IMG/VR virus record: IMGVR_UViG_3300033120_000761 | Span: 1 to 64,000 of that record | Length of the DNA: 64,000 nt | From: a virus | Taxonomy: Duplodnaviria > Caudoviricetes | Reading direction: 5' to 3' (one strand) | Shown here: positions 5,388 to 63,022 of the stretch, in pieces | How positions within the stretch are numbered: the first letter of the stretch is position 1 | Layout: every line of letters begins with the position of its first letter | Made by a program: the position numbers and the translations under genes | Notes under the pieces: model-generated | Databases searched by the model: none | Told to the model about the DNA's origin: nothing | What the model saw: only the letters and a program-made list of their open reading frames with translations

Positions 5388-6539
5388 TTAGTTATCATCA
5401 ATTTCAAAATCATCATCATCATCTAAAAGATCATCGGCATCATCCTCTAGATCTTCTAAATCAACATCAGACAAATCAAATTCTTCCTCTTCCTCTTCTT
5501 TCACAGGAGCTTTCTTTTTTGCCTTAGGCTCTTCTTTTACAGGAGCTTTTTTCTTAGATGGAGTTTTCACAACTTCTACTTCTTCCTCTTCCTCAATCTC
5601 GAAATCGTCTTCGTCAGGTTCAACTACTGGCGCTTTCTTTTTCTTAACTTCTTCTTTGACAGCTTTCTTTGGAGCTTCTTTCACCGGAGCTTTATTTTTC
5701 TTAGTAGGGTTAATTTCTTCCTCTTCCTCAATTTCAAAATCATCTTCGTCTTCAATCTCTTCTTTCACCGGAGCTTTCTTCTTAGCAGTTTCTTTTACAA
5801 GAACTTTCTTAGGTTCTTCTTTTACAGATTTCTTTGGTGGAGTTTTTACTTCTTCAACTTCTTCCGTTTCTTCCTCTTCACCTTCTGCCTCTGCAAGATC
5901 ATCTAATGCTTTATTACAAGCAACTCTTAAATCTTTTAATTTAAGTTTCTTATAACCTTTTGGCATACTAAGAGAATGTTCATCTGCAAGTTCATAGATC
6001 TCTGTTTCAGACATTGCATTAACTTCATCTGCTGAAGGAAGTAATGTCTCTTCAGTTTCTTCAAAGGCATCATCGATCTCTTCCTCAGTACCTTGGAAAG
6101 ATTCTAGTTTCTCAGCAACTTTATTCTTCTTAGGGGTAACGGCCGCTTCAACATCAACAGGGGATTCTTTTACTGTTTTCTTTTTCTTAGGCTCTTCAAC
6201 TAATTTAAGATCTGCCTTTTTTGTTTCTTTAGGTTTATCAGCAACTTTTGTTGGCTTTGATTCTTTCTTCTCAGAAGATGAAGTGCTCATTAGATGCTCA
6301 CCACAGAACGGGCAATCGCCATATTCAAGTAAAATAGGAGAAGCACATGATGGGCATGGAAGGTGAATATCACCGCCGTGCTTAGTGAATACTTCTCTGA
6401 CTTCGTGATATTTCTGAGCATGAGCTTGAATGATTTCTGCTACAGCCAGTAATTGAGCAAATGCACTTTCATCACCTTTCGATAACTCAGAGATCGCTTC
6501 TTCGTGTAATTCTACAAATTTCTTAACATTTTCCAACAT
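5388..6539 (-). CDS. Zn-ribbon protein with long Lys/Glu-rich low-complexity repeats
   Basis: CPSC...CPFC near the N-terminus; repeated KKAPVKE and DDFEIEEEEE blocks; SD-like GGAG upstream. Confidence 0.8.
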   Translation of the reverse strand: MLENVKKFVELHEEAISELSKGDESAFAQLLAVAEIIQAHAQKYHEVREVFTKHGGDIHLPCPSCASPILLEYGDCPFCGEHLMSTSSSEKKESKPTKVADKPKETKKADLKLVEEPKKKKTVKESPVDVEAAVTPKKNKVAEKLESFQGTEEEIDDAFEETEETLLPSADEVNAMSETEIYELADEHSLSMPKGYKKLKLKDLRVACNKALDDLAEAEGEEEETEEVEEVKTPPKKSVKEEPKKVLVKETAKKKAPVKEEIEDEDDFEIEEEEEINPTKKNKAPVKEAPKKAVKEEVKKKKAPVVEPDEDDFEIEEEEEVEVVKTPSKKKAPVKEEPKAKKKAPVKEEEEEEFDLSDVDLEDLEDDADDLLDDDDDFEIDDN

Positions 6540-6540
6540 T

Positions 6541-8094
6541 CTAGTTCTCCTTTTTTCTTATTATTAAGTTGGTATCGACACTTGTTTTAACCCATGTAAC
6601 TACTTCTTTCCCATAATGCTCACGAACTTTATTTGCGGCCTCTCTAGAGTTTTCGTTCTTATCAACGATAACGTCCCAAGTGGGAACAGGCTTCAAATGA
6701 CCGAAGAAAGCTTCTTGTTTCTCTGAATATGTTCTTTCGATTCTTCCTTTAGTTTGGTTGAATCGTTCAATATTATTTCCCTGCGGTGTTGTGATAATCC
6801 CGTGATCAAAAGTTCTTACTGATAATCCAACTTCTGCTTTTTGGGTTGCTACAACATAATCAATATTCTTAGTCTCTGCTAATTCAAGGATTCTCTTATA
6901 GGCAGTATCCTCATCATAGTCTTCAATAATTTCTTTAATACGAGAGGGAGCATTAACGATCTCAGGATCTTTCATGTTGAATTTACCTAAGAGCATATCG
7001 CCTCTAAATTTAGACAACATCTTATAGATAACTGCTGCCTGAACTTTTCTTTCAACAAAAATGATAACTAACTTACCTTCTCTAATTTTTCTAATCGCAC
7101 GTTTGCAGATCAAAATATTACGATCTTTATCTTGGCTGGCACGAGTAATGTAGGCAGAATAATTTTTCTCAAGATCATATTCGATATCGTAGTAATCACT
7201 TTTAACAAGTGAGATCCTAGATAGAATTTTTGATCCTGAATTCTGTTCTTTCGCTATAAACTTCACAGGTCCAAAGGTATCAAAGGTTAAAACCTCTTTT
7301 CCATCTTTACGAGTTAAGTTAGCAGAGGCCGTATAACGAAATCTGGCGCGAAATTTATTAGTAACTGTTTGAACATCTTCGATAGGAGACTTCTGCCCCT
7401 CATCGAAAAAAATTAATCCAACTTTCTCTTTATATACTTCAAGATGCTTTTCATTAGCGAGTGAGTGATAGAGACAAATATTTACCTTTCCTAATCTGGC
7501 CTTAGCTTTAAAAACTCCACCTACTCCACCGATATCAGCTTTCTTCATATTGAATAATTTAGGATCTAAACAAGCTTCTATCCATTGTTCCTGGAGGAAA
7601 GTCGTATGCACGATCACAAGGGCCGGTTGACGCTTTCTTCTGATCATTTCAAGGTATGTTACTGTCTTACCGAATGAGGCATAAGCAACAGCAGAAGCAT
7701 CATCAAATACTTCTACTGCGTCTAATAACTCTTCTTGATCCTCGCGCGGAACGATGTTTGAGTGCTCGAAGGACACCGATGGGAGGACCAGAGTTCTATC
7801 AATGAAATTAGGAATTAATTTAAACTTCTTAAAATGCTTAATCAGTTTTTCTTTACCACCACGAGAGATGCAGAGCTGATTATCCTCATCGATCTCATAA
7901 CTCATTAGATATTTTTTAGTCTTAAAGTTACTTCGGCCGTATTTTTCATTCTCAATATATTTAGGATTCTTATATCTGAATAAGTCTTTGGTCGTCTCAA
8001 GAATTGTTTTACCGTTTTCCAGTTTCAACAATCTTCTTACGCTAATGATCAATGTCGATTCGATTATTACATCGATTGATTGAATCTTTTCCAA
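6541..8094 (-). CDS. Superfamily 2 DNA helicase
   Basis: Walker A-like AYASFGKT, FFDEGQK, TAS motif III, QTKGRIER motif VI; TTG start with GAGAGG 8 nt upstream. Confidence 0.88.
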   Translation of the reverse strand: MEKIQSIDVIIESTLIISVRRLLKLENGKTILETTKDLFRYKNPKYIENEKYGRSNFKTKKYLMSYEIDEDNQLCISRGGKEKLIKHFKKFKLIPNFIDRTLVLPSVSFEHSNIVPREDQEELLDAVEVFDDASAVAYASFGKTVTYLEMIRRKRQPALVIVHTTFLQEQWIEACLDPKLFNMKKADIGGVGGVFKAKARLGKVNICLYHSLANEKHLEVYKEKVGLIFFDEGQKSPIEDVQTVTNKFRARFRYTASANLTRKDGKEVLTFDTFGPVKFIAKEQNSGSKILSRISLVKSDYYDIEYDLEKNYSAYITRASQDKDRNILICKRAIRKIREGKLVIIFVERKVQAAVIYKMLSKFRGDMLLGKFNMKDPEIVNAPSRIKEIIEDYDEDTAYKRILELAETKNIDYVVATQKAEVGLSVRTFDHGIITTPQGNNIERFNQTKGRIERTYSEKQEAFFGHLKPVPTWDVIVDKNENSREAANKVREHYGKEVVTWVKTSVDTNLIIRKKEN

Positions 8095-8139
8095 AGTGTA
8101 AACCTCTCTAAACTTTTGGATGAATGAATGTACTTTGGA

Positions 8140-8169
8140 AGATTAGATCTTTTTGGGTAGCTATTACAA
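8140..8169 (-). promoter_or_regulatory. Putative sigma70-type promoter for the replication operon
   Basis: TTGTAA-N18-TAATCT on the minus strand; the spacer contains AAAAAGAT, as do the promoters at 9769-9797 and near 35067-35096. Confidence 0.45.
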
Positions 8170-8279
8170 GGATGAAAAAATAAATATTACGAGTCTTCAT
8201 TGTTTCCGAATATTTAATTTGAAACTAGTTTCATGACTCGGAAGTAATAAGTTTGTGACTGAATTTTTTGATCAACTTA

Positions 8280-8351
8280 TGGTGGCCCGTGGATTTTCGA
8301 ATTACCACTTCTGCAATCGATGAGCAGCGTTACCATTTAAACTACCGAGCC
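8280..8351 (-). pseudogene. Degenerate tRNA (anticodon unresolved, possibly UCG)
   Basis: 72 nt with a GGCUCG/CGGGCC acceptor, ACCA end, UGGUA D-loop and UUCGA T-loop, but broken T stem and a non-canonical anticodon loop. Confidence 0.55.
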
Positions 8352-51932: not shown

Positions 51933-52676
51933 ATGAGAAATGGTAAGGTAGTACTTATCTACTCTGGCGGGATGGATTCAACGGTAGCTCTTTATAAATT
52001 ATGTGCTGATTATGGCGCAAGTAATGTAAAGGCGATCTCATTCGATTATCAATCAAAACATAATGATGAGGAATTCAAGCGTGCGGCTGAAACGACTAAA
52101 TTCTTAGGTGTAGAGCATGCAAGAATTGATATTTCAAGTGTGGCGGCTCATCTCAAGTCAGATCTTCTTAAATCAGGTGGTGAAATACCTGAGGGGCATT
52201 ACGCCGAATCTAATATGAAGAAAACGGTGGTTCCATTTAGAAACGGGATCATGTTAGCTATCGCCGCAGGGATTGCAGAATCATTTGGAGCGGGGGAGAT
52301 CGCCATTGGAAATCATAGTGGAGATCACGCCATTTACAAAGATTGCCGCTCTACCTTTATCTCGGCGATGAATGAGGCAACCGCATACGGAACTGATCTA
52401 AATGTAAATATCATTTCACCTTTTCAACATATGACCAAAGCTCAAATTGCTCTTCTAGGATCTAGATTAGCGGTAGATTGGAATAAAACATATAGTTGCT
52501 ATGTTGGGGGGTCAGAACATTGTTCAAAATGTGGAACTTGTATCGAACGTAGAGCCGCCTTCATTGAAGCCGGTGTAGATGATCCTACCGTTTATACTGA
52601 CGGAAGAACATCGGAGGAATTCTATTCTGATTTTCAAAAACTCGAAGCAGAATTGAAAGAATCGGGTGAAATTTAA
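51933..52676 (+). CDS. queC: 7-cyano-7-deazaguanine synthase QueC
   Basis: YSGGMDS PP-loop, VVPFRNGIML, DH..Y.DCR, TYSCY...HCSKCGTC. Confidence 0.96.
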   Translation: MRNGKVVLIYSGGMDSTVALYKLCADYGASNVKAISFDYQSKHNDEEFKRAAETTKFLGVEHARIDISSVAAHLKSDLLKSGGEIPEGHYAESNMKKTVVPFRNGIMLAIAAGIAESFGAGEIAIGNHSGDHAIYKDCRSTFISAMNEATAYGTDLNVNIISPFQHMTKAQIALLGSRLAVDWNKTYSCYVGGSEHCSKCGTCIERRAAFIEAGVDDPTVYTDGRTSEEFYSDFQKLEAELKESGEI

Positions 52677-52899
52677 TTTTTTAAATTATATCAGATGGCA
52701 TGGAAATCTGTGCCATCCGCGGTTTAGAATTTAAGAGTCTTGGGTATAACCCTTTGTTATGAGTACCATAAGGGAACCTACGGCTATGATTAATATTCCT
52801 TCACTTATGTTAAAATTAAATAATTGCTAGTTTGATGTACGGTGCCTCCTTCCTGATTCGGGACTATAAAAGAGATAGCGAATAAAAAAGGAGGCCCTT

Positions 52900-53202
52900 A
52901 TGTCTAGTCCTAAGAAGATCGTATTCACTAAATCTGAATCTTACGCTAAGTTCTTTAGAGATTATCTAGCTTGGTGTAAGGTGAAAAAGGTCAACCCATT
53001 AACGAAAGATCCCAAGTCTATTAAGACCTATTTAAAAGATCTCTCTAAGGGTTATCCCTCTTATGAGAAGCCTCGTAAGCCTCAAACCCTAAAGATCAAA
53101 TTAAACGCGATTAAATGGCATTATGAGCTTAATCACAAAGAAGATCTTCTAGACTTCGAGACAGAATTCGACAGTAAGTTTTTCAAAAAATTCGCTGCTT
53201 AA
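52900..53202 (+). CDS. Stand-alone tyrosine-recombinase N-terminal (SAM-like/core-binding) domain, paralog 1
   Basis: FRDYLAWC...SIKTYLKDL...PQTLKIKLNAIKWHY; no catalytic domain. Confidence 0.55.
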   Translation: MSSPKKIVFTKSESYAKFFRDYLAWCKVKKVNPLTKDPKSIKTYLKDLSKGYPSYEKPRKPQTLKIKLNAIKWHYELNHKEDLLDFETEFDSKFFKKFAA

Positions 53203-53213
53203 AAAACTAATTC

Positions 53214-53236
53214 AAGGGCTGGCAACGGCCCTTTTT
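53214..53236 (+). terminator. Intrinsic terminator
   Basis: AAGGGCT-GGCAAC-GGCCCTT followed by a T tract. Confidence 0.8.
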
Positions 53237-53430
53237 CTTTCACTTTTCTTAACTAATCAAAATCTGTTAATCAATCGAATTATTCATAAATTTAGTCCGT
53301 GAATCATATAATATCATACCTAAATGATAGTTTATTTGAGTTGAAGAACGCCTTCGATCTGATCAATAATTTCTCAAAATTCAAATATCAACACACGCAA
53401 TAACATCTGCTAACGAAGGAGCAAAAAGTT

Positions 53431-53745
53431 ATGGTTACTGTTACTGAAGTTAAAATGCACGAGACAAACAATTACTATCGTCAGGCAACGACTCTTTTTC
53501 TGAATTTTAATAAAGAAAGAAAAAAGGTACCCCTACCTAAGAATGAAGAAACGATCAAGGCGTTTTTGAGAGAATTAAAAGAAGGATATCCAAACAATAA
53601 ACCAAAGGCTCAAGGGACAGTAAAAGCAAAGCTTGTAGCAATTAGAAATCTTTATAAGCTAAATGGCGTTGAAGATGTAGATTTCGATTCTCTTTATAAA
53701 TTTGTTCCGCAATTATTCCAGACCCAAGAACAGCAAGCTTCTTAA
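53431..53745 (+). CDS. Stand-alone tyrosine-recombinase N-terminal-like domain, paralog 2
   Basis: TIKAFLRELKEGYP..KPKAQGTVKAKLVAIRNLY aligns with paralog 1 (IK.YL..L..GYP...KP..P.T.K.KL.AI...Y). Confidence 0.55.
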   Translation: MVTVTEVKMHETNNYYRQATTLFLNFNKERKKVPLPKNEETIKAFLRELKEGYPNNKPKAQGTVKAKLVAIRNLYKLNGVEDVDFDSLYKFVPQLFQTQEQQAS

Positions 53746-53751
53746 TCTTTA

Positions 53752-53788
53752 TGGGATGGTAGAGCTGATCTTTATCATCCCAGTTTTT
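53752..53788 (+). terminator. Intrinsic terminator
   Basis: 13-bp stem TGGGATGGTAGAG/CTTTATCATCCCA (with G-U pairs), followed by GTTTTT. Confidence 0.8.
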
Positions 53789-53846
53789 ATTTGTAATCAC
53801 CTATTCTGTAATCTACAATGGAGTAAACCTATTCCAGGATTATTTA

Positions 53847-54317
53847 ATGTCAAAAAAGTATACCTCAACTAAAGTTTATGATGGCTTTTCAACTTGTTTT
53901 AGACAGTGGCGGGCAACCGATACACATTGTTCTAGACTTCATGGATACGGGGTCAGTTTTAAAGTCTGGTTTGAGGGTGAACTAGATCATAGAAATTGGG
54001 TTGCAGATTTTGGAATTATGAAAAGGGCTATTCATAAAATTGATGGTAAGTCTCCTATGGATTTCTTCAAATGGCTTCTAGACCATACCGTAATTATGTC
54101 TGAGGATGATCCGGCCCTGCCAACATTCAGAGAACTTGATAAACAGGGTGTTCTGCAATTAAGAGTTGTTCCTGATGTTGGATGTGAGAGATTCGCTGAA
54201 TTTCTTTTACTTAAAGTAAATGAGTTTATTCAAAAAGAAACCGGCGGGAGAGTCAAGGCTATTCAGCTTGAGTTTTTTGAGCATAATAAAAACAGTGCAA
54301 TAGCTAAGCTAGAGTAA
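53847..54317 (+). CDS. queD: 6-carboxytetrahydropterin synthase QueD
   Basis: HCSRLHGY, WVADFG, LLDHT, GCE, EFFEH.KN. Confidence 0.93.
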   Translation: MSKKYTSTKVYDGFSTCFRQWRATDTHCSRLHGYGVSFKVWFEGELDHRNWVADFGIMKRAIHKIDGKSPMDFFKWLLDHTVIMSEDDPALPTFRELDKQGVLQLRVVPDVGCERFAEFLLLKVNEFIQKETGGRVKAIQLEFFEHNKNSAIAKLE

Positions 54318-54392
54318 TCAGCGCAGTTTTTGATAAAATCTCGGTCCATGTTACACTTCTAGTATCTTTTTAATTGATACCAAGGAAGGTAA

Positions 54393-55760
54393 GTGATGGC
54401 CGAGACTAATACAAAGTCTAAGACCGACGATTCTCAATTCCGAAAGATAGCTCTCAAATATTACATTGAAAAAAAGAAAGCAGACCCTAGCTACATTGCT
54501 CAAAGAGAAGAAGTAGTTAATGGCTCAAAAGTTCCCCGTAGAGCAATCTATAGGATCTTTGGTTCTTTTCATAATTTTGTAAAAGAGGCAGAAGCGGAAT
54601 ACATCAGATCACTACCTACATCTGCGCGAGCTTTGCTCTCGGAGAGATCTAAGAAATTCTGCGTTAATGCAACTAAAGACGAGTGCATAGAAGATCTTAG
54701 ACAATTACAAAAAAGAAATCCCTTAAAGCATATTACAAGAAACTTTTATAGAGACTCAGGAACATTTTCGGATGCTACTTGGAACCAATTCTTTGGAACA
54801 TTCCAGGAATTTAGAAGATGTGCCGGTTTAGAGTTATCGAGAACTCAACATAAATTAGAAAGAGAGATTGCAAAGCACGCTTCCGCTGATCATTACTCTA
54901 AATATTATGAAACCCATGTAGCGCCTTTTTATAGAAAATTTGAGAAAGTTCATCAATCTTCTAAGCTAAAAAGAATCATGGTTATCTCAGACATTCATGA
55001 TATTGAATGCGAAGAATTTACATTAGAAGTTTTCATAGCAGAATGTAAAAGGAAACAACCTGACATCATCGTATTGAATGGGGATATTTTTGATCTATAT
55101 GAGTTCTCTAGATACACTCAAGATCCAAGGCATATAAAGATCAAGGAAAGGTTCGAGTTCATTCATAAAAGAGTCTTTAAAGCTCTTAGAGATGCCTGTC
55201 CTGATGCTCAGATCGATTTCATTATGGGAAATCATGAGTTCAGATTGATCAAGTATCTTGCAGATGCTACTCCGAATTTAAGAATTTTATTATCTGATGT
55301 AATGGGAATCACTTTTTCAAAAGTATTTGGATTAGATGAGTTCCAGATCAATTGGGTTTCTAAATTTGATTTAACTGCTTTTACAAAAACTGATATCGCG
55401 AACATCATGAAGCAAAATCATAAAATCTATTTCGATACGTTTTGTGTTTCTCATGAGCCAGATGCAGTTTTACAAAAATCATATACGGGAACAAATGGGC
55501 ATCATCATTCGGCCTCGTTAGAAAGCGGATTCAATATGCATACGGGAGTAACTTCATGGACTCAGACTCCAGCTGCTCACGTTCGGGATGCAGAATATCT
55601 ATATAAAGTTTCTAAATGGAACACCGGATTTCTAGAAGCAGTAATCAATACAGAACAAAGACAGGCCATTCAGCGTATTCATCACACACATAACGATTGG
55701 TGCGAGATCGATGGAGTTCTGTACGAGAGGAAGGAACGATATGAGCGAAAAGAAATTTAG
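54393..55760 (+). CDS. Calcineurin-like metallophosphoesterase with N-terminal HTH-like repeats
   Basis: SDIH, NGDIFD, GNHE, SH, GHHH. Confidence 0.88.
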   Translation: MMAETNTKSKTDDSQFRKIALKYYIEKKKADPSYIAQREEVVNGSKVPRRAIYRIFGSFHNFVKEAEAEYIRSLPTSARALLSERSKKFCVNATKDECIEDLRQLQKRNPLKHITRNFYRDSGTFSDATWNQFFGTFQEFRRCAGLELSRTQHKLEREIAKHASADHYSKYYETHVAPFYRKFEKVHQSSKLKRIMVISDIHDIECEEFTLEVFIAECKRKQPDIIVLNGDIFDLYEFSRYTQDPRHIKIKERFEFIHKRVFKALRDACPDAQIDFIMGNHEFRLIKYLADATPNLRILLSDVMGITFSKVFGLDEFQINWVSKFDLTAFTKTDIANIMKQNHKIYFDTFCVSHEPDAVLQKSYTGTNGHHHSASLESGFNMHTGVTSWTQTPAAHVRDAEYLYKVSKWNTGFLEAVINTEQRQAIQRIHHTHNDWCEIDGVLYERKERYERKEI

Positions 55761-56160
55761 TATCAGGAGATGCCACGACATAGAATTAGTTAAAAAGCTA
55801 CATTTAGAAACGTTCCCTACCGATGAGTGGTATTCGAATCCAAAAGCAGAGTCATGGGTTGTGTGGTTGGATAAGAAGCCCGTAGGATTTTGCATGGTAT
55901 CAATATGGGATGGAAAATATGGTTTTTTGGCAAGGGCAGGATTGTTAAGGGAAGCTCGCGGTTGTGGGCTACATATGCGTTTGATAAAGGTAAGAGAGTC
56001 TTTTTGCCGGAGAAATGGTTTTACTAAAGTTCTCACCTACACTAAGATGGATAATATTACATCGAATCGTAACTTACAGAAGGCGGGGTTTTATCTTTAT
56101 ATTCCCCAATATTCGTATGCAGATCCAGACTGTTTATACTGGATGAAGGAATTGAAATGA
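55741..56160 (+). CDS. GNAT acetyltransferase
   Basis: ARAGLLREARGCGLHMRLI; N.TSNRNLQKAGF; likely start MSEKKF at 55741. Confidence 0.85.
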   Translation: MSEKKFSIRRCHDIELVKKLHLETFPTDEWYSNPKAESWVVWLDKKPVGFCMVSIWDGKYGFLARAGLLREARGCGLHMRLIKVRESFCRRNGFTKVLTYTKMDNITSNRNLQKAGFYLYIPQYSYADPDCLYWMKELK

Positions 56161-56456
56161 AATTAGCAGAAGAAGTTTTAAGCTTATTTGAATCCGCCAC
56201 ATTGGTTTATACAGATGTCCTAACCATCGATCCCGATGCTTCCGATTCTTATAACGATGAGGCAATTAGGAAGCAGATCATTAAGGAAATAAAACCATTC
56301 AATCTGTCTTTTTTAAAATTTAAAGTTTTGGGAACGGAGGGTGAAGACGGTGCCGAGGTTGAGATTTCAATCAAGGGAGATCCAGATAAGCTTAAAAAAT
56401 TCGTTAACAAGTATGCTGGTATGGATAACGTAAAAAATCCGGAAGTATTAAAATGA
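56157..56456 (+). CDS. Hypothetical protein with shared N-terminal tag
   Basis: Begins MKLAEEVLSLFE. Confidence 0.7.
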   Translation: MKLAEEVLSLFESATLVYTDVLTIDPDASDSYNDEAIRKQIIKEIKPFNLSFLKFKVLGTEGEDGAEVEISIKGDPDKLKKFVNKYAGMDNVKNPEVLK

Positions 56457-56752
56457 GTGAGAAAAATCTATCGGTATGTTTGCCGATTCAAAAGGATAAG
56501 CCAGAAGATGTTCAGAGATATATGTTCCATTGTCCGGGATGCCAATATGGTCATGCATTTGATGAGAAAACATGGCATTTTAACTATGATCTTATTAAGC
56601 CTACCCTCACGCCCAGTTATCTTACAGGGCAAGATAATTTTACAAAAATGAGATGCCATTCATATATTAGGGATGGGAAAATCCAATTCCTAGATGATTG
56701 CTTCCACTCTTTAAAAGGACAGACGGTTGATTTACAACCTCTGCTAGACTAA
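56453..56752 (+). CDS. DUF6527-like Cys/His protein
   Basis: FHCPGC..GH, W.FN.D..KPTL.PS, RCHSYI.DG.IQFL.DC.H.L.GQTV.L. Confidence 0.7.
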   Translation: MSEKNLSVCLPIQKDKPEDVQRYMFHCPGCQYGHAFDEKTWHFNYDLIKPTLTPSYLTGQDNFTKMRCHSYIRDGKIQFLDDCFHSLKGQTVDLQPLLD

Positions 56753-56853
56753 TGAAATTAGCCAAGTCACTTACAGTCTTGATCGAAGGTTATTCAGATT
56801 CTCTAGATGGGGCAATTAAAATTTATCACGATATTATTAAGGAAACAGCATGA
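56752..56853 (+). CDS. 33-aa peptide consisting largely of the shared tag (not in the ORF track)
   Basis: MKLAKSLTVLIEGYSDSLDGAIKIYHDIIKETA; overlaps both neighbours (TAATG, ATGA). Confidence 0.55.
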   Translation: MKLAKSLTVLIEGYSDSLDGAIKIYHDIIKETA

Positions 56854-57764
56854 GTTTAGTTAACGACATCAAAGGTCTATTATCAGAAGAATTCATCACG
56901 CTTGAGGGATCTCTAGGTATTCCTCGTGATGAGATGCCTCAGATCGATTCTGAGCATATTGAACCATTCTTAGATTATCTAAAAGAAATTGGGTGCAATA
57001 CTTCTGAAGTTCAAAAAGAAGCACATGAATTAAAACCTTCTCAAGCTGAATTAGATCCTGCTAAGGCAGATAAAATTTGGTCAGATGGCGGAACATTCAA
57101 GAATCCTATTTTCACATCTAAAGATGGATATGTTCTAGACGGACACCATAGATGGCTTGCAGCTTTGAGAAATGCTGATAAAGAAAAGATGAATTGTATC
57201 GAGCTAGATTTAGATGCAAGAGAGGCAATTGAAAAAATGCACGAGTTTGAGCATACAAAAGTTAGAGGCATCGATGATAAATTGATTGAGAGTCTTGATC
57301 GCCTATTAAGAGAGGATGCTGAAAAACTATCTTCTTTAACCAAAGAAGTTCTCGGTGAATTAGAAATTGAGTGTGCAGAATTTACTAGAGACTGGCCGGA
57401 TGAAGTATTCACGGCAGATCTTGGTGAGACTATTTTGGACTCTAGGGGTAAAAAGATCTCAAAAGAACCCGTAATCCATTCAATTAAAATTCTATCTCCA
57501 TACGATTTATTATCTCAGTTCTTAGATAATTTTGATAAGCAAATTAATACTAAAGACGTTAAAGAATCGGACTATGCGACTGTTTTTTCAGGATTGATTG
57601 GAAATTCTTATGAACTTCAAAGCTCTACTGACTTCAAAAAAGAAGGTGGTGAATCTGAAGGATCAGAAGACATTTTCTTCACAATCAAAATTATTTCATT
57701 GAAATATAACCCGCGAGCTGGAATAATTGAGGTTAAGTTCAAAGAAAGTAATTTTAACCTCTAG
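56850..57764 (+). CDS. Tagged protein with ParB/Srx-like domain plus unknown C-terminal domain
   Basis: MSLVNDIKGLLSE tag; LKPSQ.E...PIF.S.DGYVLDGHHRW. Confidence 0.75.
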   Translation: MSLVNDIKGLLSEEFITLEGSLGIPRDEMPQIDSEHIEPFLDYLKEIGCNTSEVQKEAHELKPSQAELDPAKADKIWSDGGTFKNPIFTSKDGYVLDGHHRWLAALRNADKEKMNCIELDLDAREAIEKMHEFEHTKVRGIDDKLIESLDRLLREDAEKLSSLTKEVLGELEIECAEFTRDWPDEVFTADLGETILDSRGKKISKEPVIHSIKILSPYDLLSQFLDNFDKQINTKDVKESDYATVFSGLIGNSYELQSSTDFKKEGGESEGSEDIFFTIKIISLKYNPRAGIIEVKFKESNFNL

Positions 57765-57774
57765 ATTGTATCCG

Positions 57775-57833
57775 ATGGGGAAACTCATACTTTCAAACGA
57801 AAGAATTTTTCACATTCTCTAGGATGAAGGAAA
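57775..57833 (+). pseudogene. Decayed copy of the queE 5' end
   Basis: Reads MGKLILSNERIFHIL*DEG versus QueE MSGNTIVLANERIFHTLQGEG; 36/40 nt identical to 58464-58503. Confidence 0.75.
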
Positions 57834-57848
57834 TAAAAAAGGAAAAAA

Positions 57849-58388
57849 ATGAATTTATCAGAGAATGTACTAAAGTTATTAGGGGAAGATTCCACATTCT
57901 TCAAACCCGAAGTAGCTAAAAAGGAAGTATCAAAAATATTAGACTCGTTAGCTAAAGTATCTCATGGTTTAGTTGAAAAATATCAGGGAAGCATAGCAGG
58001 AAATAGCTCTAGTCCATCTGCACCCGATACATCTAAATTTATATCTCAACATTCGGGGATGATTGAATATATGTCTAATGAAGTAGTTAGAGACCGTTTT
58101 CCAAGATTCGTTTCGACGGGTGTTAAAATAGGCAGAAATGTCGATATAGAAACAACTAAAGCTATAAAGAAAGAATTTATAAAAATGTTTAATAAGTTTC
58201 AGTCTAAGTTTGGTGGTGATGGTACTTCGCATATCAGAGTCAGGTTTGGTGATGAAGAGTATGGCCCACACTACTCAATTACGCTCATCGACGTTAGTGG
58301 ATCAAATTGGGGCTGTGTCGGAGTGCAGATAGAGAAAAGGGATGGCAATGGAGATCATAATACCAAGATTTCGCATTTATATAAATAA
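57849..58388 (+). CDS. Hypothetical protein with shared N-terminal tag
   Basis: Begins MNLSENVLKLLGE; AAGGA SD. Confidence 0.7.
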   Translation: MNLSENVLKLLGEDSTFFKPEVAKKEVSKILDSLAKVSHGLVEKYQGSIAGNSSSPSAPDTSKFISQHSGMIEYMSNEVVRDRFPRFVSTGVKIGRNVDIETTKAIKKEFIKMFNKFQSKFGGDGTSHIRVRFGDEEYGPHYSITLIDVSGSNWGCVGVQIEKRDGNGDHNTKISHLYK

Positions 58389-58438
58389 GGAATAACACGA
58401 AACTAGCAAAAAGTGTAAATTTTACACATAGGTAATAA

Positions 58439-59170
58439 ATGTCCGGGAACACAATAGTACTCGCAAACGAAAGAATTTTTCACACTCTCCAAGGTGAAGG
58501 AAAGTATATGGGTTATCCATGTACGTTCGTACGTTTATCACTCTGCAATTTACGTTGTGAGTGGAGGAATAAAGATGGCAGTTCAACTAGATGCGATACA
58601 CCATATACCTCGTTTGAACCTGAAAAAAATGATGTAGAAATTGATCAGATTATAAAAGAAGTGTCTGATAAAAATTATCATGTGGTTGTTTCTGGTGGAG
58701 AACCATTTTTTCAAGCTAATGTTTCAGAGCTAATTAAAGAATTAAGACTTAATAATAAATATGTAACCGTTGAAACAAATGGAACTATTTATAGAGAAAA
58801 TCAAGCAGATTTCATTTCATTATCCCCTAAATTAAAATCATCATCTTCTAATCCTGAGCGCGGACAAATTCATGATAAGCAAAGAATCAATCTCGGAGCT
58901 TTATCTAAGTTTATTGTTAATCACGATTATCAATTTAAGTTCGTGGTTAATAATGAGGAAGAAGTCGAAGAAATCTTAGATATTAAAGGAGAGCTTTGGA
59001 AATTAACGGGTATCGATATTTCAGAAAAAATTTGGTTAATGCCTCAAGGTGTTGCTAAAGAACAATTTGATGAAAAGGCAGAATGGATCTGGGATATTTG
59101 TAAAAAACACCACTGGAAATATACTGATAGACTGCATATCAGAGTTTATGGTCAAAGAGTTGGTGTATGA
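58439..59170 (+). CDS. queE: 7-carboxy-7-deazaguanine synthase QueE (radical SAM)
   Basis: TLQGEG, FVRLSLCNLRCEW...CDT, VSGGEP, VETNG, SLSPK, RLH...YG. Confidence 0.96.
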   Translation: MSGNTIVLANERIFHTLQGEGKYMGYPCTFVRLSLCNLRCEWRNKDGSSTRCDTPYTSFEPEKNDVEIDQIIKEVSDKNYHVVVSGGEPFFQANVSELIKELRLNNKYVTVETNGTIYRENQADFISLSPKLKSSSSNPERGQIHDKQRINLGALSKFIVNHDYQFKFVVNNEEEVEEILDIKGELWKLTGIDISEKIWLMPQGVAKEQFDEKAEWIWDICKKHHWKYTDRLHIRVYGQRVGV

Positions 59171-59427
59171 AATTAGCGAATCACCTATTACTAGTCTTAG
59201 CAGAAGCTACCAAATTTCCTACAATAATCAGTTGTTCCAAATCATCCGTAACGGTGGCATGGAGTAAAGATTCTATTTTCAAATATGAATGTAATGATTA
59301 TATGAGAGGAATAGCTACCGATAGAATCGATGCGACTTCAAAACTATTGCCAGTATTAGATAGGAAAATGCTATCTTATATTTCTAAAAATAAAGACACG
59401 CTTAACGGAACAAAGGTAGAAGAATGA
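59167..59427 (+). CDS. Hypothetical protein with shared N-terminal tag
   Basis: Begins MKLANHLLLVLAE. Confidence 0.65.
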   Translation: MKLANHLLLVLAEATKFPTIISCSKSSVTVAWSKDSIFKYECNDYMRGIATDRIDATSKLLPVLDRKMLSYISKNKDTLNGTKVEE

Positions 59428-59873
59428 AATTAGCTCAAGAACTAAAAAAATTAGTTAATGAAGATCTAGATTCTTCTTATGTTGTTTTTGGCTTTGAGGG
59501 TAAACCCGATCTTGCTAATGATCATGTTACTCTAATGTATTTCGGTAAAATAGAGGAAGATAAGGTTCAAGAAATTATCTCTCTAATCGATTCATATATG
59601 GAAGAGAATAAACCAAAAGAGTTTGAAGCTGTTTTTGATAAAGTTTCTATGTTCGGCCCTGAGAATGATGTAAGGGTTTTAGAGGCTAAGGATAAGAACG
59701 TCTTTTTAATCAAGCTCAGAGAGCTTCTAGCGCCTTATAATGGCTCTAAGTTTACTGACTTCAATCCTCATTATACAAATGATTCATTAGATTCATTTAC
59801 GGGCATCATCGATAGATTACAATTTTCACAATCAGAATATAAAGAAATAAAAACTTGGAATTTAGGAGATTAA
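59424..59873 (+). CDS. 2H phosphoesterase (Acb1/gp57B-like candidate) with shared N-terminal tag
   Basis: Two HxT motifs (HVTL, PHYT); begins MKLAQELKKLVNE. Confidence 0.8.
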   Translation: MKLAQELKKLVNEDLDSSYVVFGFEGKPDLANDHVTLMYFGKIEEDKVQEIISLIDSYMEENKPKEFEAVFDKVSMFGPENDVRVLEAKDKNVFLIKLRELLAPYNGSKFTDFNPHYTNDSLDSFTGIIDRLQFSQSEYKEIKTWNLGD

Positions 59874-60078
59874 TCATGCAAGTAAAAAGCAAAATTCACG
59901 GATCAGCATCTATTACTATTAGAGGACAGAGAAGGAGAGGGAGCATTCGCTTATAACCAGATCTCTTTCCCTCACGTTGCGGGTCTTAACCCTAGAAACG
60001 TAAATATTCAAAATACGCTAACAATTATCCCGCTTGTTACTGAGCCGGTTTCTGTAGCTTAAATAAGGTAATTAATTT

Positions 60079-60735
60079 ATGGATGGAATTAAACTTAAAG
60101 ATTTAAAAAATATCCCTTCTACTCCGATGGTCGATAACGGCCTGACGAGAGAAGAGAAGAAAACAAAGATCGAAGAACATTTCAAAGCAATTATGGAAAC
60201 ATTAGGGCTTGATTTAACCGATGATTCTTTGATGGATACTCCTCGTAGAGTAGCTAAGATGTATGTGGATGAGATCTGCTACGGATTAGATGAATCAAGA
60301 TTCCCTAAGATCACGATGGTTGAAAATAAATTCGGATCTCAGATGGTAACGGAAGCAAAAATTACCGTGAACTCATTATGCGAACATCACTTCATTACTA
60401 TTTGTGGCTTTGCTCACATCTCATATATTCCAAAGGCAAATGGAAAGGTGATTGGATTATCTAAGATGAATCGAATCGTTGAATACTTTTCGGCAAGACC
60501 TCAAGTTCAAGAAAGACTAACTGAGCAAGTTCAAAAATGTTTGGCAGAGCTTTTAGGGACTGAAGATGTGGCCGTGGTAATTGATGGAGTCCACTTTTGC
60601 GTAAGAGCAAGAGGAGTAAAAGACGGATCTTCTGTAACAAGAACTTCTTCTTTGGGTGGAAAATATCTGAGTGATGCGGTTGTAAGATCAGAATTTATGA
60701 ACGCAATTCCTACGATTGCAGACTTTAAATTATAG
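60079..60735 (+). CDS. folE: GTP cyclohydrolase I FolE
   Basis: DTPRRVAKM, SLCEHH, IGLSKMNR, RPQVQERLT, HFCVRARG. Confidence 0.97.
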   Translation: MDGIKLKDLKNIPSTPMVDNGLTREEKKTKIEEHFKAIMETLGLDLTDDSLMDTPRRVAKMYVDEICYGLDESRFPKITMVENKFGSQMVTEAKITVNSLCEHHFITICGFAHISYIPKANGKVIGLSKMNRIVEYFSARPQVQERLTEQVQKCLAELLGTEDVAVVIDGVHFCVRARGVKDGSSVTRTSSLGGKYLSDAVVRSEFMNAIPTIADFKL

Positions 60736-60737
60736 GA

Positions 60738-61793
60738 ATGAAGATGTTATCGAGGCAAATTTTAAAACTGTTAGAAGATGCCTCGGAGCCTTGGTTATCC
60801 TATTTAGATGATAAGCCTAAGACTAGAGAGTATGTTGTAAAAGCAATTGAAGATCTGGATGCAGGCTTAGAAAATAAGGTGATCTGGAATACCGAATTTC
60901 TAAATATAAAATCTAGATTAGGATCTCTTTGTTATGATTTATTTCATGATGTGAAAAGAGATGCGATTAAGAAAGTCACAATGACACCGGAAGAATTAGC
61001 ATATTTTGAAGAAAAGATTTATATGCTCGCGGTTCAAGCTCCAAGAATGATTCTAAAGAAAATAGGATCAGATAATAATCCAGGCCTAAAGTTTATGGTT
61101 GAGACGCTGATTAAACCAATAGCGGATCTTCTGGAAAAAATAAATAAATTAAAAGAATTTGTTCAGAAGGGAAGAAAGCCTAACCCTAATGCTAAGACTA
61201 AGCCTGTTTTTGATCCCGGATATTCTTCTAAGGAAGATACTGAAAAAGTAAAAAATATCTATGAAGAATTATTAAAAGAATGGCTTCCTAAACAAATAGC
61301 TGAGATTGAAGATCAACAAGAAAAAATGATTGTTGATCTTCAAAAGTTATTAAGGGATGGTACGCCTGCTGAAAAATCTAATAAGAGATCTCACCCAGGA
61401 AGAATTTACTTTGACTTATCTGATAGGTTAGAAAAAGATTATAAGAAGAAAATAAAAGAAAAGGCCGTGAAAGAGGCGAAAGCTATCCAAGAAGCTTTTA
61501 CGATTAAGAATATTAAAAAAGTCACAAGTATTATTTCTAATAAGGGTGATTTAAAAGATTCTAAAATTGTAAAAACGTCTTCTAGGGACGGTATCATGGA
61601 AGGGATTATAAAATTTCTTTTTAGTGATGGATCTTCATTCTCGGTGAAGAATCAGGTAGTGGTTGTTTGGGATACTCGTAAACCATTTTATAGATTCCCA
61701 ACGACTTTCATTGATATTGAAATGCCAGATAAGGTAAAGCATAAAATGAAATCCGAAGAATGGATGAACATTAATTTCAAAAGAGTAGCGTAA
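60738..61793 (+). CDS. Hypothetical protein with shared N-terminal tag
   Basis: Begins MKMLSRQILKLLE; 351 aa, no family assigned. Confidence 0.75.
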   Translation: MKMLSRQILKLLEDASEPWLSYLDDKPKTREYVVKAIEDLDAGLENKVIWNTEFLNIKSRLGSLCYDLFHDVKRDAIKKVTMTPEELAYFEEKIYMLAVQAPRMILKKIGSDNNPGLKFMVETLIKPIADLLEKINKLKEFVQKGRKPNPNAKTKPVFDPGYSSKEDTEKVKNIYEELLKEWLPKQIAEIEDQQEKMIVDLQKLLRDGTPAEKSNKRSHPGRIYFDLSDRLEKDYKKKIKEKAVKEAKAIQEAFTIKNIKKVTSIISNKGDLKDSKIVKTSSRDGIMEGIIKFLFSDGSSFSVKNQVVVVWDTRKPFYRFPTTFIDIEMPDKVKHKMKSEEWMNINFKRVA

Positions 61794-63022
61794 TGAAATT
61801 AGCAGAGGAATTAATTAGATTGATACCCGTAGATGAAGTTATAAATGCTTCTAAGCTTAGGCATTCTACTCGCATGGTTTTTAATAATCCTGATTTTGAT
61901 CGATATACGGTTTTAAATCAAGGTGAAACTACCAAGGCCGTAGTAGTTAATAATAAAGAGCAGTATCGGATAATCGAATTAACCACTAATCAAAATTTAG
62001 CATCATCGAATATGATGATTTTTAATGATGATAAAAATTCTGCTATTGAATATCTTTTAGATGGCTATTATGAAGATGAATTGGTTGCACAAACCAAAGC
62101 TTTCTATATGCGCCACAGCCTATCTGGTGGCGACGTTCCTGCTAACAAATTACCTAAAATAAAAATAAAAAGTGATTCAAAGTGGATTAAGAAAGAAAAG
62201 CTATATCTTTGGTTGATCAAAGAAGGTATTCCAGATGTTCAAATTAAGATCGTGTTTCCTGACCTTATAAATTTAGATTCTGCTGAGACATCAATATCTC
62301 ATGGGGATTTTACCCTTATTGGATTCGCCGAAGATAAACATAAATTTTTATTATCCGTAATAGATGATTCAACAAAGCTGTTAAATAAGGCAGGGTTTAA
62401 AGATATTTCTTATGGAAAAGTCTATCTGGCCACGAAGAAAAACTCTTCAACTACTAGAACCCTAGCAGACTACATTTCTAATGATGATAGTATGCGCGTT
62501 TTTGATATAAAAACTTCTCAAGAACAATCCGTATTAACTTTCACTCATGAGCTTGGGCATAGATATTATTATAAGCGACTCTCTCCCCTATCTAGAGAAT
62601 TGATCGGAAAAGAATTTATCAAAAATATGCGCCTTGATATGGAAGATCAAAAAGAAGTAAATAAACAAATCAGAGGTTCTATTCCTGATTATAAAGTCGG
62701 GGATAAAATAAAAGATAAGAAATATGGCGATCTTGTTTTTTCTGGTGTCGGGGGTGTTAATCTTAACTCCAGAAAGATGGTTCTGAAATTCCACTTATTA
62801 AAAAATAATGAGAAGACCAATAAAATTTTAACTTTTGATAGTATGCTCGATGCTATACTGTATTTTAATAAAGATTCGCTAAAAGGTAAAAATAAAGCTA
62901 ATCCTTGGATTCCCACAGCTTACTCTAAAACCAGTGCAGTTGAATGGTTCGCGGAAATTTTCTCATACTCTGTTGTAGAGAAAAATAAAGAGATCTTAGA
63001 TTGGATAAAAGGGCTTAAATAA
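61793..63022 (+). CDS. Tagged zinc-metallopeptidase-like protein
   Basis: MKLAEELIRLIPVDE tag; HELGH motif; distal AYS..S..EWFAE.F. Confidence 0.7.
   Translation: MKLAEELIRLIPVDEVINASKLRHSTRMVFNNPDFDRYTVLNQGETTKAVVVNNKEQYRIIELTTNQNLASSNMMIFNDDKNSAIEYLLDGYYEDELVAQTKAFYMRHSLSGGDVPANKLPKIKIKSDSKWIKKEKLYLWLIKEGIPDVQIKIVFPDLINLDSAETSISHGDFTLIGFAEDKHKFLLSVIDDSTKLLNKAGFKDISYGKVYLATKKNSSTTRTLADYISNDDSMRVFDIKTSQEQSVLTFTHELGHRYYYKRLSPLSRELIGKEFIKNMRLDMEDQKEVNKQIRGSIPDYKVGDKIKDKKYGDLVFSGVGGVNLNSRKMVLKFHLLKNNEKTNKILTFDSMLDAILYFNKDSLKGKNKANPWIPTAYSKTSAVEWFAEIFSYSVVEKNKEILDWIKGLK

Follow-up and report, generated by a model that had tools for sequence, protein, structure and literature searches.

Why do eight proteins with unrelated bodies, encoded close together in one phage genome, begin with the same short helix? 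The question is raised by positions 56157-63022 of the IMG/VR record IMGVR_UViG_3300033120_000761, a single phage-like contig of 86,553 bp that represents an uncultured T4-type phage. The window, i.e. the whole stretch of DNA that was analysed, is the first 64 kb (64,000 nucleotides) of this contig. The evidence set out below makes it likely that the shared amphipathic N-terminal helix of 12-15 residues, here called the tag, is a capsid-targeting and cleavage propeptide of the T4 type. The tagged set probably consists of fast-changing proteins that are injected with the DNA, and an anti-defence role may be suspected for them. No paper describing this tag was found.

The initial annotation of the region had singled out eight N-termini, and all eight open reading frames (ORFs) start where, and with the peptides that, it had described. 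The tag follows the pattern M-[KSN]-[LM]-[ASVL]-x-x-[LVI]-x-x-L-[LIVF]-(0-3 x)-E; it is 12-15 amino acids (aa) long and terminates in [LIVF]-x-E in all eight proteins. As had also been noted, the interleaved genes for DUF6527 (56453), QueE (58439) and FolE (60079) lack it. The proposal that the tag precedes unrelated bodies holds for a ParB/Srx domain and a 2H phosphoesterase; of the third body, named as a peptidase, the HExxH motif is present but the peptidase leads are weak (zincin-like). The features of the region are listed here, with bit scores from the gapped tag profile described below.

56157-56456, plus strand: tagged gene, 99 aa, acidic body of no known family; tag at nt 56157-56192, 12 aa, ending in L then F-E (17.8 bits)
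56453-56752, plus strand: untagged DUF6527 gene (PF20137, E 9e-10)
56752-56853, plus strand: 33-aa ORF with a full tag at nt 56752-56787 (14.2 bits), no homologue
56850-57764, plus strand: tagged two-module protein, 304 aa; tag at nt 56850-56888, ParB/Srx-like domain at residues about 15-140, second module at about 160-304
57279-57314, plus strand: internal tag relic of the preceding protein, residues 144-155, L-R-E then D, at the module joint, where a helix (141-154) has a low predicted local distance difference test score (pLDDT)
57849-58388, plus strand: tagged gene, 179 aa, orphan with a basic body; tag at nt 57849-57887
58439-59170, plus strand: untagged QueE, radical SAM, no SPASM domain (family matches)
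59167-59427, plus strand: tagged gene, 86 aa, orphan with a basic body; tag at nt 59167-59205
59424-59873, plus strand: tagged 2H (LigT-like) phosphoesterase, 149 aa; tag at nt 59424-59462, both H-x-T motifs, PF02834 above cut-off
60079-60735, plus strand: untagged GTP cyclohydrolase I FolE (family matches)
60738-61793, plus strand: tagged gene, 351 aa, basic body of no family; tag at nt 60738-60776, weaker (8.3 bits)
61793-63022, plus strand: tagged HExxH protein, 409 aa, orphan; tag at nt 61793-61837, 15 aa, ending in V-D-E; motif H-E-L-G-H

Occurrence of the tag in the genome

A crude gene call of the whole contig added five tag-like N-termini outside the window, at genome positions 67461, 73688, 74007, 74350 and 75276. 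The first belongs to a gene between those for the portal and the protease, and the other four lie between the capsid and sheath genes. In total, about 13 genes of this genome (~9%) are tagged, and an M-K-L-A start is found in five genes. Tags occur at 56-77 kb only, and within this range they sit also on genes wedged between the portal, protease, capsid and sheath genes. Of the 31 genes in this range that are 60 aa or longer, 12 are tagged, whereas the 110 genes elsewhere include no more than one weak case (Fisher p 2e-8), which disposes of the concern, raised by the initial annotation itself, that the motif might be equally frequent at random N-termini genome-wide. Indeed, the profile scan that it had recommended confines the tag to the late, head-gene part of this genome and reveals it in plenty in relatives. 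The hydrophobic moment of the tags is 0.55, versus 0.28 for other N-termini (Mann-Whitney p 9e-8).

An ungapped, Glu-anchored position-specific scoring matrix (leave-one-out) was too weak because the spacing varies, and a gapped profile was used instead. With it, tags score 12-18 bits and genuine internal decoys up to about 11 bits. The top-scoring "decoys" were in fact genuine tags starting at internal ATGs, the crude ORF caller having extended those genes upstream. The N-terminus of the terminase (45481), which scores 8.3 bits, was considered as a tag and dismissed as a chance match, its homologues being without one.

At the nucleotide level, all four Ala codons (GCA, GCC, GCG and GCT) are used at Ala4 in this genome. 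Leu is coded by both CTN and TTR, and Ser2 by both TCN and AGY in relatives. Such synonymous variation indicates that selection acts on the peptide, rather than that the tag is spread by gene conversion or represents a DNA repeat or an mRNA signal. The region has no DNA similarity to any of 50,697 phage records, and a scan for sigma-70 promoters was uninformative. The sole terminator-like hairpins on the plus strand between 52 and 64 kb are at window positions 53214-53233 and 53752-53782; the tagged genes from 53.8 kb onward may be co-transcribed with the head genes.

Head proteins and cleavage-type sites

The initial annotation had suggested looking for a gp21-like prohead protease, and a Peptidase_S77 gene is present beyond the end of the window, flanked by other head genes (genome coordinates).

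64446-66215: gp20-like portal (Pfam 19.5 bits, below the cut-off of 22.9)
69560-70939: prohead protease of the gp21 family (Pfam Peptidase_S77, PF03420, 36.5 bits versus a cut-off of 27; phrog_207, head maturation protease)
71048-72466: gp23-like capsid protein (Pfam 26.9 bits, above the cut-off of 24.4)

A single-sequence phmmer search of the PDB with the protease gave no match, and a profile was needed. The protease-domain profile of the clade matches the structure of T4 gp21 (5JBL, E 8e-7), with His78 and Ser135 invariant at the catalytic positions. The protease is fused to a scaffold-like tail, its Glu/Lys-rich C-terminal 240 aa. This tail contains 16 hydrophobic-x-E sites, i.e. 6.7 per 100 aa versus a proteome median of 2.2 (shuffle p 0.006). 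It would be cut to pieces, as is gp22 of T4.

Sites of this type also recur in other head proteins. All 13 clade members in the capsid protein alignment have an invariant [ILMFV]-x-E at residues 61-63. This site lies near the end of the 65-residue propeptide that T4 gp23 loses (PMC5694885). A neighbouring L-G-E was first favoured as the capsid cleavage site and was dropped as not conserved. The protease itself has a conserved hydrophobic-x-E site at residues 17-19 of its N-terminus (the own site of T4 gp21 is LIE-9; PMC9026906), and a conserved 241-aa protein encoded upstream of the protease has F-L-x-E at residues 12-15.

The gene at 67461, directly after the portal gene, represents the only tagged family that is conserved. 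In T4, the position after the portal is that of the core genes 67 and 68.

Two further proteins of this part of the genome deserve mention. A 90-aa RNA-binding protein of the RRM type is encoded just upstream of the portal, at genome 64154-64426 (L001:154-423). It matches NCBIfam NF058537 (Rbp_regulator) with E 4.5e-20, below cut-off, and is found in the same pre-portal position in at least five related loci (L003, L004, L005, L006 and L010). The 200-aa protein encoded at genome 74674-75276 is kept in 7 of 17 related loci, and its extreme C-terminus is tag-like (8.6 bits in a sliding scan), with L-K-E one residue before the stop. This motif could be a C-terminal processing site or a chance match; C-terminal processing is known for T4 Alt.

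Relatives, dialects and fused genes

The portal has more than 100 metagenomic homologues, those of the closest relatives being 67-80% identical to it. Single-sequence IMG/VR scans with the 409-aa protein or the portal found no relatives; a portal alignment recovered 19 IMG/VR loci, each comprising 10 kb either side of the portal, and 17 of them were scanned for tags. Strong tags number 62 in this genome and 13 of the 17 scanned loci, with a maximum of 11 in one locus. A looser profile threshold gives 80 tagged proteins, whose bodies fall into 72 BLAST groups. A hydrophobic-x-E ending at residues 8-16 is present in 55 of the 62 tags, versus 153 of 615 other N-termini (25%).

The tagged genes are also the variable ones. 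Their homologues are found in a median of 0 of the 17 loci, whereas untagged neighbours have a median of 5 (p 3e-4). The exception is the 67461 family, which occurs in 11 of the 17 loci, right after the portal, and whose members have an acidic middle and a strongly basic Arg/Lys tail.

The tag itself differs between genomes in what may be called dialects. It begins with M-K-L-A in this genome, M-G-K-[FI] in locus L006, M-K-L-C in L007, M-S-K-A in L009 and L021, and M-N-K-A in L018. At tag positions 2-4, tags of the same genome have an identity of 0.78 and tags of different genomes one of 0.47 (permutation p <= 0.0005). A shared receptor would be expected to make the tag change in concert on unrelated proteins.

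The initial annotation had also reported an internal copy of the tag in the protein encoded at 56850, and this copy lies at the joint between its two modules. The predicted structure consists of two confident domains joined by the low-confidence helix; the N-terminal tag forms a separate, detached helix (residues 2-11). P0106, a 165-aa stand-alone homologue of the second module (53% identity along its whole length), has a tag of its own, and this tag and the internal copy are in exact register in the alignment. The 56850 gene is thus a fusion of two tagged genes, in which the old tag, with its L-R-E end retained, has become the joint. The relic is a candidate internal protease site.

The first domain of this protein has a ParB/Srx fold with a DGHHRW motif. 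Its family has 3,338 members in a library of 1.8 billion proteins, and many of these are proteins of 1000-4800 aa with the domain internal; one such giant also carries a Strawberry-notch-type helicase. It is proposed that polyvalent proteins, among them those with a DdrB-like ParB domain, are packaged and injected, which has in part been demonstrated for P1 (PMC5512222). The occurrence of the 56850 family inside giant proteins fits the DdrB-like ParB of polyvalent proteins. The small stand-alone ParB/Srx homologues from other phages all have a tag-like leader before the domain. A further protein, P0111, combines a tag, a ParB-like domain and a 67461-family body (44% identity, E 2e-30), which physically ties ParB-like cargo to the conserved portal-adjacent protein. 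The putative cargo role of the tagged proteins is thus independently supported by the kinship of the ParB/Srx domain to polyvalent-type giants and by the P0111 fusion. The polyvalent repertoire appears to be represented here by the ParB/Srx and 2H domains, with the HExxH protein as a weak lead.

A few observations concern individual genes. The 56752 ORF is the one doubtful gene: it may be a real micro-gene, whose product would be a micro-cargo peptide, or else what is left of a tagged gene that was lost. It overlaps the start of the next gene by 4 nt, and 21 residues would be left after clipping. The 2H protein (59424) matches TIGR02258 below cut-off (E 6e-8). The 351-aa protein (60738) has no usable match in the ESM Atlas, where it begins at residue 3, so that its start and tag register are ambiguous by two codons (alternative ATG). 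The only match of the 409-aa HExxH protein among 5.8 billion proteins is its own near-identical copy; the Atlas gives weak zincin-like leads. QueC, QueD-like, QueE and FolE, all of the 7-deazaguanine pathway, are scattered among the tagged genes at window positions 51933-60735, and all four are untagged.

Two of the related loci encode long homologues of the large terminase, L021:2013 with 855 aa and L008:5049 with 967 aa. They exceed the 548-aa terminase encoded here by 300-400 residues, and their BLAST matches to it fall into two or three separate segments, as would be the case if inteins or inserted domains interrupted them. Locus L003 contains, at 6126-8347, three tandem paralogues of about 240-250 aa with near-identical N-termini and the appearance of DNA methyltransferases. 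They sit between portal-proximal genes and the protease.

What the tag may do

Mullaney and Black (1996) reportedly dealt with the capsid-targeting sequence (CTS) found on IPI, IPII and IPIII, which are internal proteins of T4. The T4 CTS is an N-terminal leader of 10-19 aa whose targeting and processing residues are separable and which works on foreign proteins; it guides proteins to the core of the prohead, and gp21 cleaves it off after [L/I]-x-E (PMC9026906, PMC5694885). Alt and gp24 of T4 likewise have short propeptides that are removed by the prohead protease gp21 (PMC9026906, PMC5694885). By the same logic, the tag described here would dock a protein onto the internal core during prohead assembly, the likely partner being the scaffold-like C-terminal half of the protease protein. 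Once the shell is assembled, the gp21-family serine protease would cut after the Glu of the terminal hydrophobic-x-Glu and free the mature protein inside the head. The known specificity of this protease family and the conserved capsid-protein sites point to such a cleavage step. By analogy with T4 IPI-III and Alt, the freed proteins would remain associated with the packaged DNA, some of them at least being carried into the host along with it. This T4 account is in keeping with the family of the protease, with the cleavage-type sites that essential head proteins carry, with where the tagged genes lie and with what the cargo consists of.

The resemblance to T4 is one of architecture. In both systems, unrelated proteins carry at their N-terminus a short leader, of 10-19 aa in T4 and 12-15 here, that ends in hydrophobic-x-Glu; both have a protease of the gp21 family along with capsid and portal proteins of the gp23 and gp20 types, and in both the cargo genes are poorly conserved between relatives. 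The initial annotation had spoken of a distinct addressing code, which is apt for the sequence of the tag but not for its architecture and logic, these being those of the T4 CTS. The present leader is two to five residues longer than the T4 CTS (MKTYQEFIAE) and more clearly amphipathic. Unlike T4, which has a handful of tagged genes in 169 kb, this phage has about 13 in 86.5 kb; its protease and scaffold are one polypeptide, and its tags have genome-specific dialects.

Two other systems offer parallels. The polyvalent proteins, such as DdrB and DarB of P1, share with the tagged set the DdrB-like ParB/Srx domain, the 2H phosphoesterase, a tentative zincin-like peptidase and the proposed co-delivery with DNA (Iyer, Burroughs, Anand, de Souza and Aravind 2017, PMC5512222). 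They differ in that two to 15 effector domains make up a single giant polypeptide, which MuF or portal-linked modules anchor, whereas the proteins considered here are small and single-domain, with their own tags and one two-module fusion. It appears that this phage loads cargo domains singly, each with its own tag, while other phages deliver such domain types within giant polyvalent proteins. In phiKZ, 201phi2-1 and SPN3US, head-internal proteins also have propeptides that a related prohead protease cuts after Glu, and the N-termini of some paralogues are conserved (PMC5694885, PMC7411985, PMC10052503). Unlike the present tags, those propeptides are mostly longer than 100 residues and their site is [S/A/G]-x-E with a small P3, and the protease is far more diverged.

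Several observations weigh against a T4-type propeptide. In sequence the tag bears no resemblance to the T4 CTS, which scores -0.5 bits with the tag profile, and the bodies are not uniformly basic like the T4 internal proteins (isoelectric points 4.5-9.3). Five of the 13 tags of this genome are weak profile matches (4-10 bits), and 7 of the 62 strong tags are without a well-placed hydrophobic-x-E. The T4 late promoter, TATAAATA, is not enriched (10 found versus 8.2 expected). The relatives are covered only up to 10 kb from the portal, and the enrichment near head genes is a result for this genome alone. The nearest cultured relatives are Rhizobium phages of the Kleczkowskaviridae (RHph_Y65) and the E. 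coli phage IME392, whose capsid proteins are 30-40% identical; RHph_Y65 and IME392 have no more than one weak tag in the vicinity of their head genes, so that the capsid-targeting proposal has no model phage behind it. Finally, the function of the T4 CTS is experimentally established, whereas this phage is uncultured and its tag system is known from the genes alone.

How do other explanations fare? The tag might direct proteins into the prohead core and be clipped there, while the tagged proteins for the most part serve in assembly or as parts of the internal structure (in the core, in DNA condensation or in association with the neck) rather than as effectors for the next host. The acidic middle and very basic Arg/Lys tail of the 67461 family, which resemble a DNA-binding internal protein, would fit this, as would the small and acidic products of several tagged genes among the neck genes; moreover, IPIII of T4 has a morphogenetic role (PMC9026906). 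This alternative is nonetheless considered unlikely, because the tagged genes are hypervariable between relatives, unlike structural parts, and because the bodies that can be identified (ParB/Srx, 2H, HExxH) are enzymes typical of injected conflict proteins (PMC5512222). Less probable still is a helix unrelated to the capsid, serving as a docking or regulatory peptide, for instance by offering a chaperone or degradation adaptor something to grip, by targeting proteins to membranes as an amphipathic helix or by mediating oligomerisation. Amphipathicity and heterogeneous bodies are what such a peptide would predict, and packaging is itself deduced from sequence. A peptide of this kind leaves unexplained, however, the terminal hydrophobic-x-E, which matches the rule of the resident protease family and the capsid maturation site. 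It also fails to explain the restriction of the tag to the head-proximal late region, the tagged core family beside the portal and the tag relic at the joint of the fusion protein.

The presence of a radical-SAM gene (58439) inside the tagged cluster evokes a leader for that enzyme, as in the ribosomally synthesised and post-translationally modified peptides. This is highly improbable. The gene encodes QueE (its top five NCBIfam matches are all QueE) without a SPASM domain and belongs to a queC/queD/queE/folE set; the most tag-rich loci (L018, L021 and L009) have no homologue of it within 10 kb, and tags are also found 15 kb away, in the neck module. Chance, a bias at translation starts, or a paralogous family conserved at its N-terminus only can hardly account for the tag either. 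The motif is short and degenerate, and starts such as M-K and M-S-K are common in AT-rich genomes, but the near absence of such starts among the 110 genes elsewhere in this genome rejects chance, and the amphipathic pattern runs over 12 residues. Paralogy or a repeat is rejected by the free synonymous variation, including TCN and AGY for Ser, and by the 72 unrelated body groups with their different folds.

If the tag is indeed a T4-type capsid-targeting propeptide, a signature of 12 residues would be enough to pick out, from sequence alone, the proteins that uncultured T4-type phages carry in the virion and that are the first to meet the host. The tagged proteins, mostly orphans, would then be prime candidates for new counter-defence functions. 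A broader proposal, to be held tentatively, is that a large uncultured clade of the T4 superfamily uses an evolvable capsid "postcode", whose dialect drifts with its receptor on the protease-scaffold. About 12 codons would suffice to make any gene injected cargo, and tagged genes would fuse into polyproteins whose old tags become protease-cut joints. Were this so, the injected proteome of hundreds of uncultured phages, new anti-defence enzymes included, could be predicted from the tag by sequence alone, and giant polyvalent proteins and tagged single proteins would be two solutions to one delivery problem. To our knowledge, the receptor of the CTS is still undefined even in T4; the dialects provide a natural co-variation data set for finding the tag receptor. 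With tags of this kind, the tools for T4-style packaging of proteins could also be made to work in other capsids. The fusion with its retained tag and the link to polyvalent domains suggest how the cargo repertoires of these phages are built and reshuffled.

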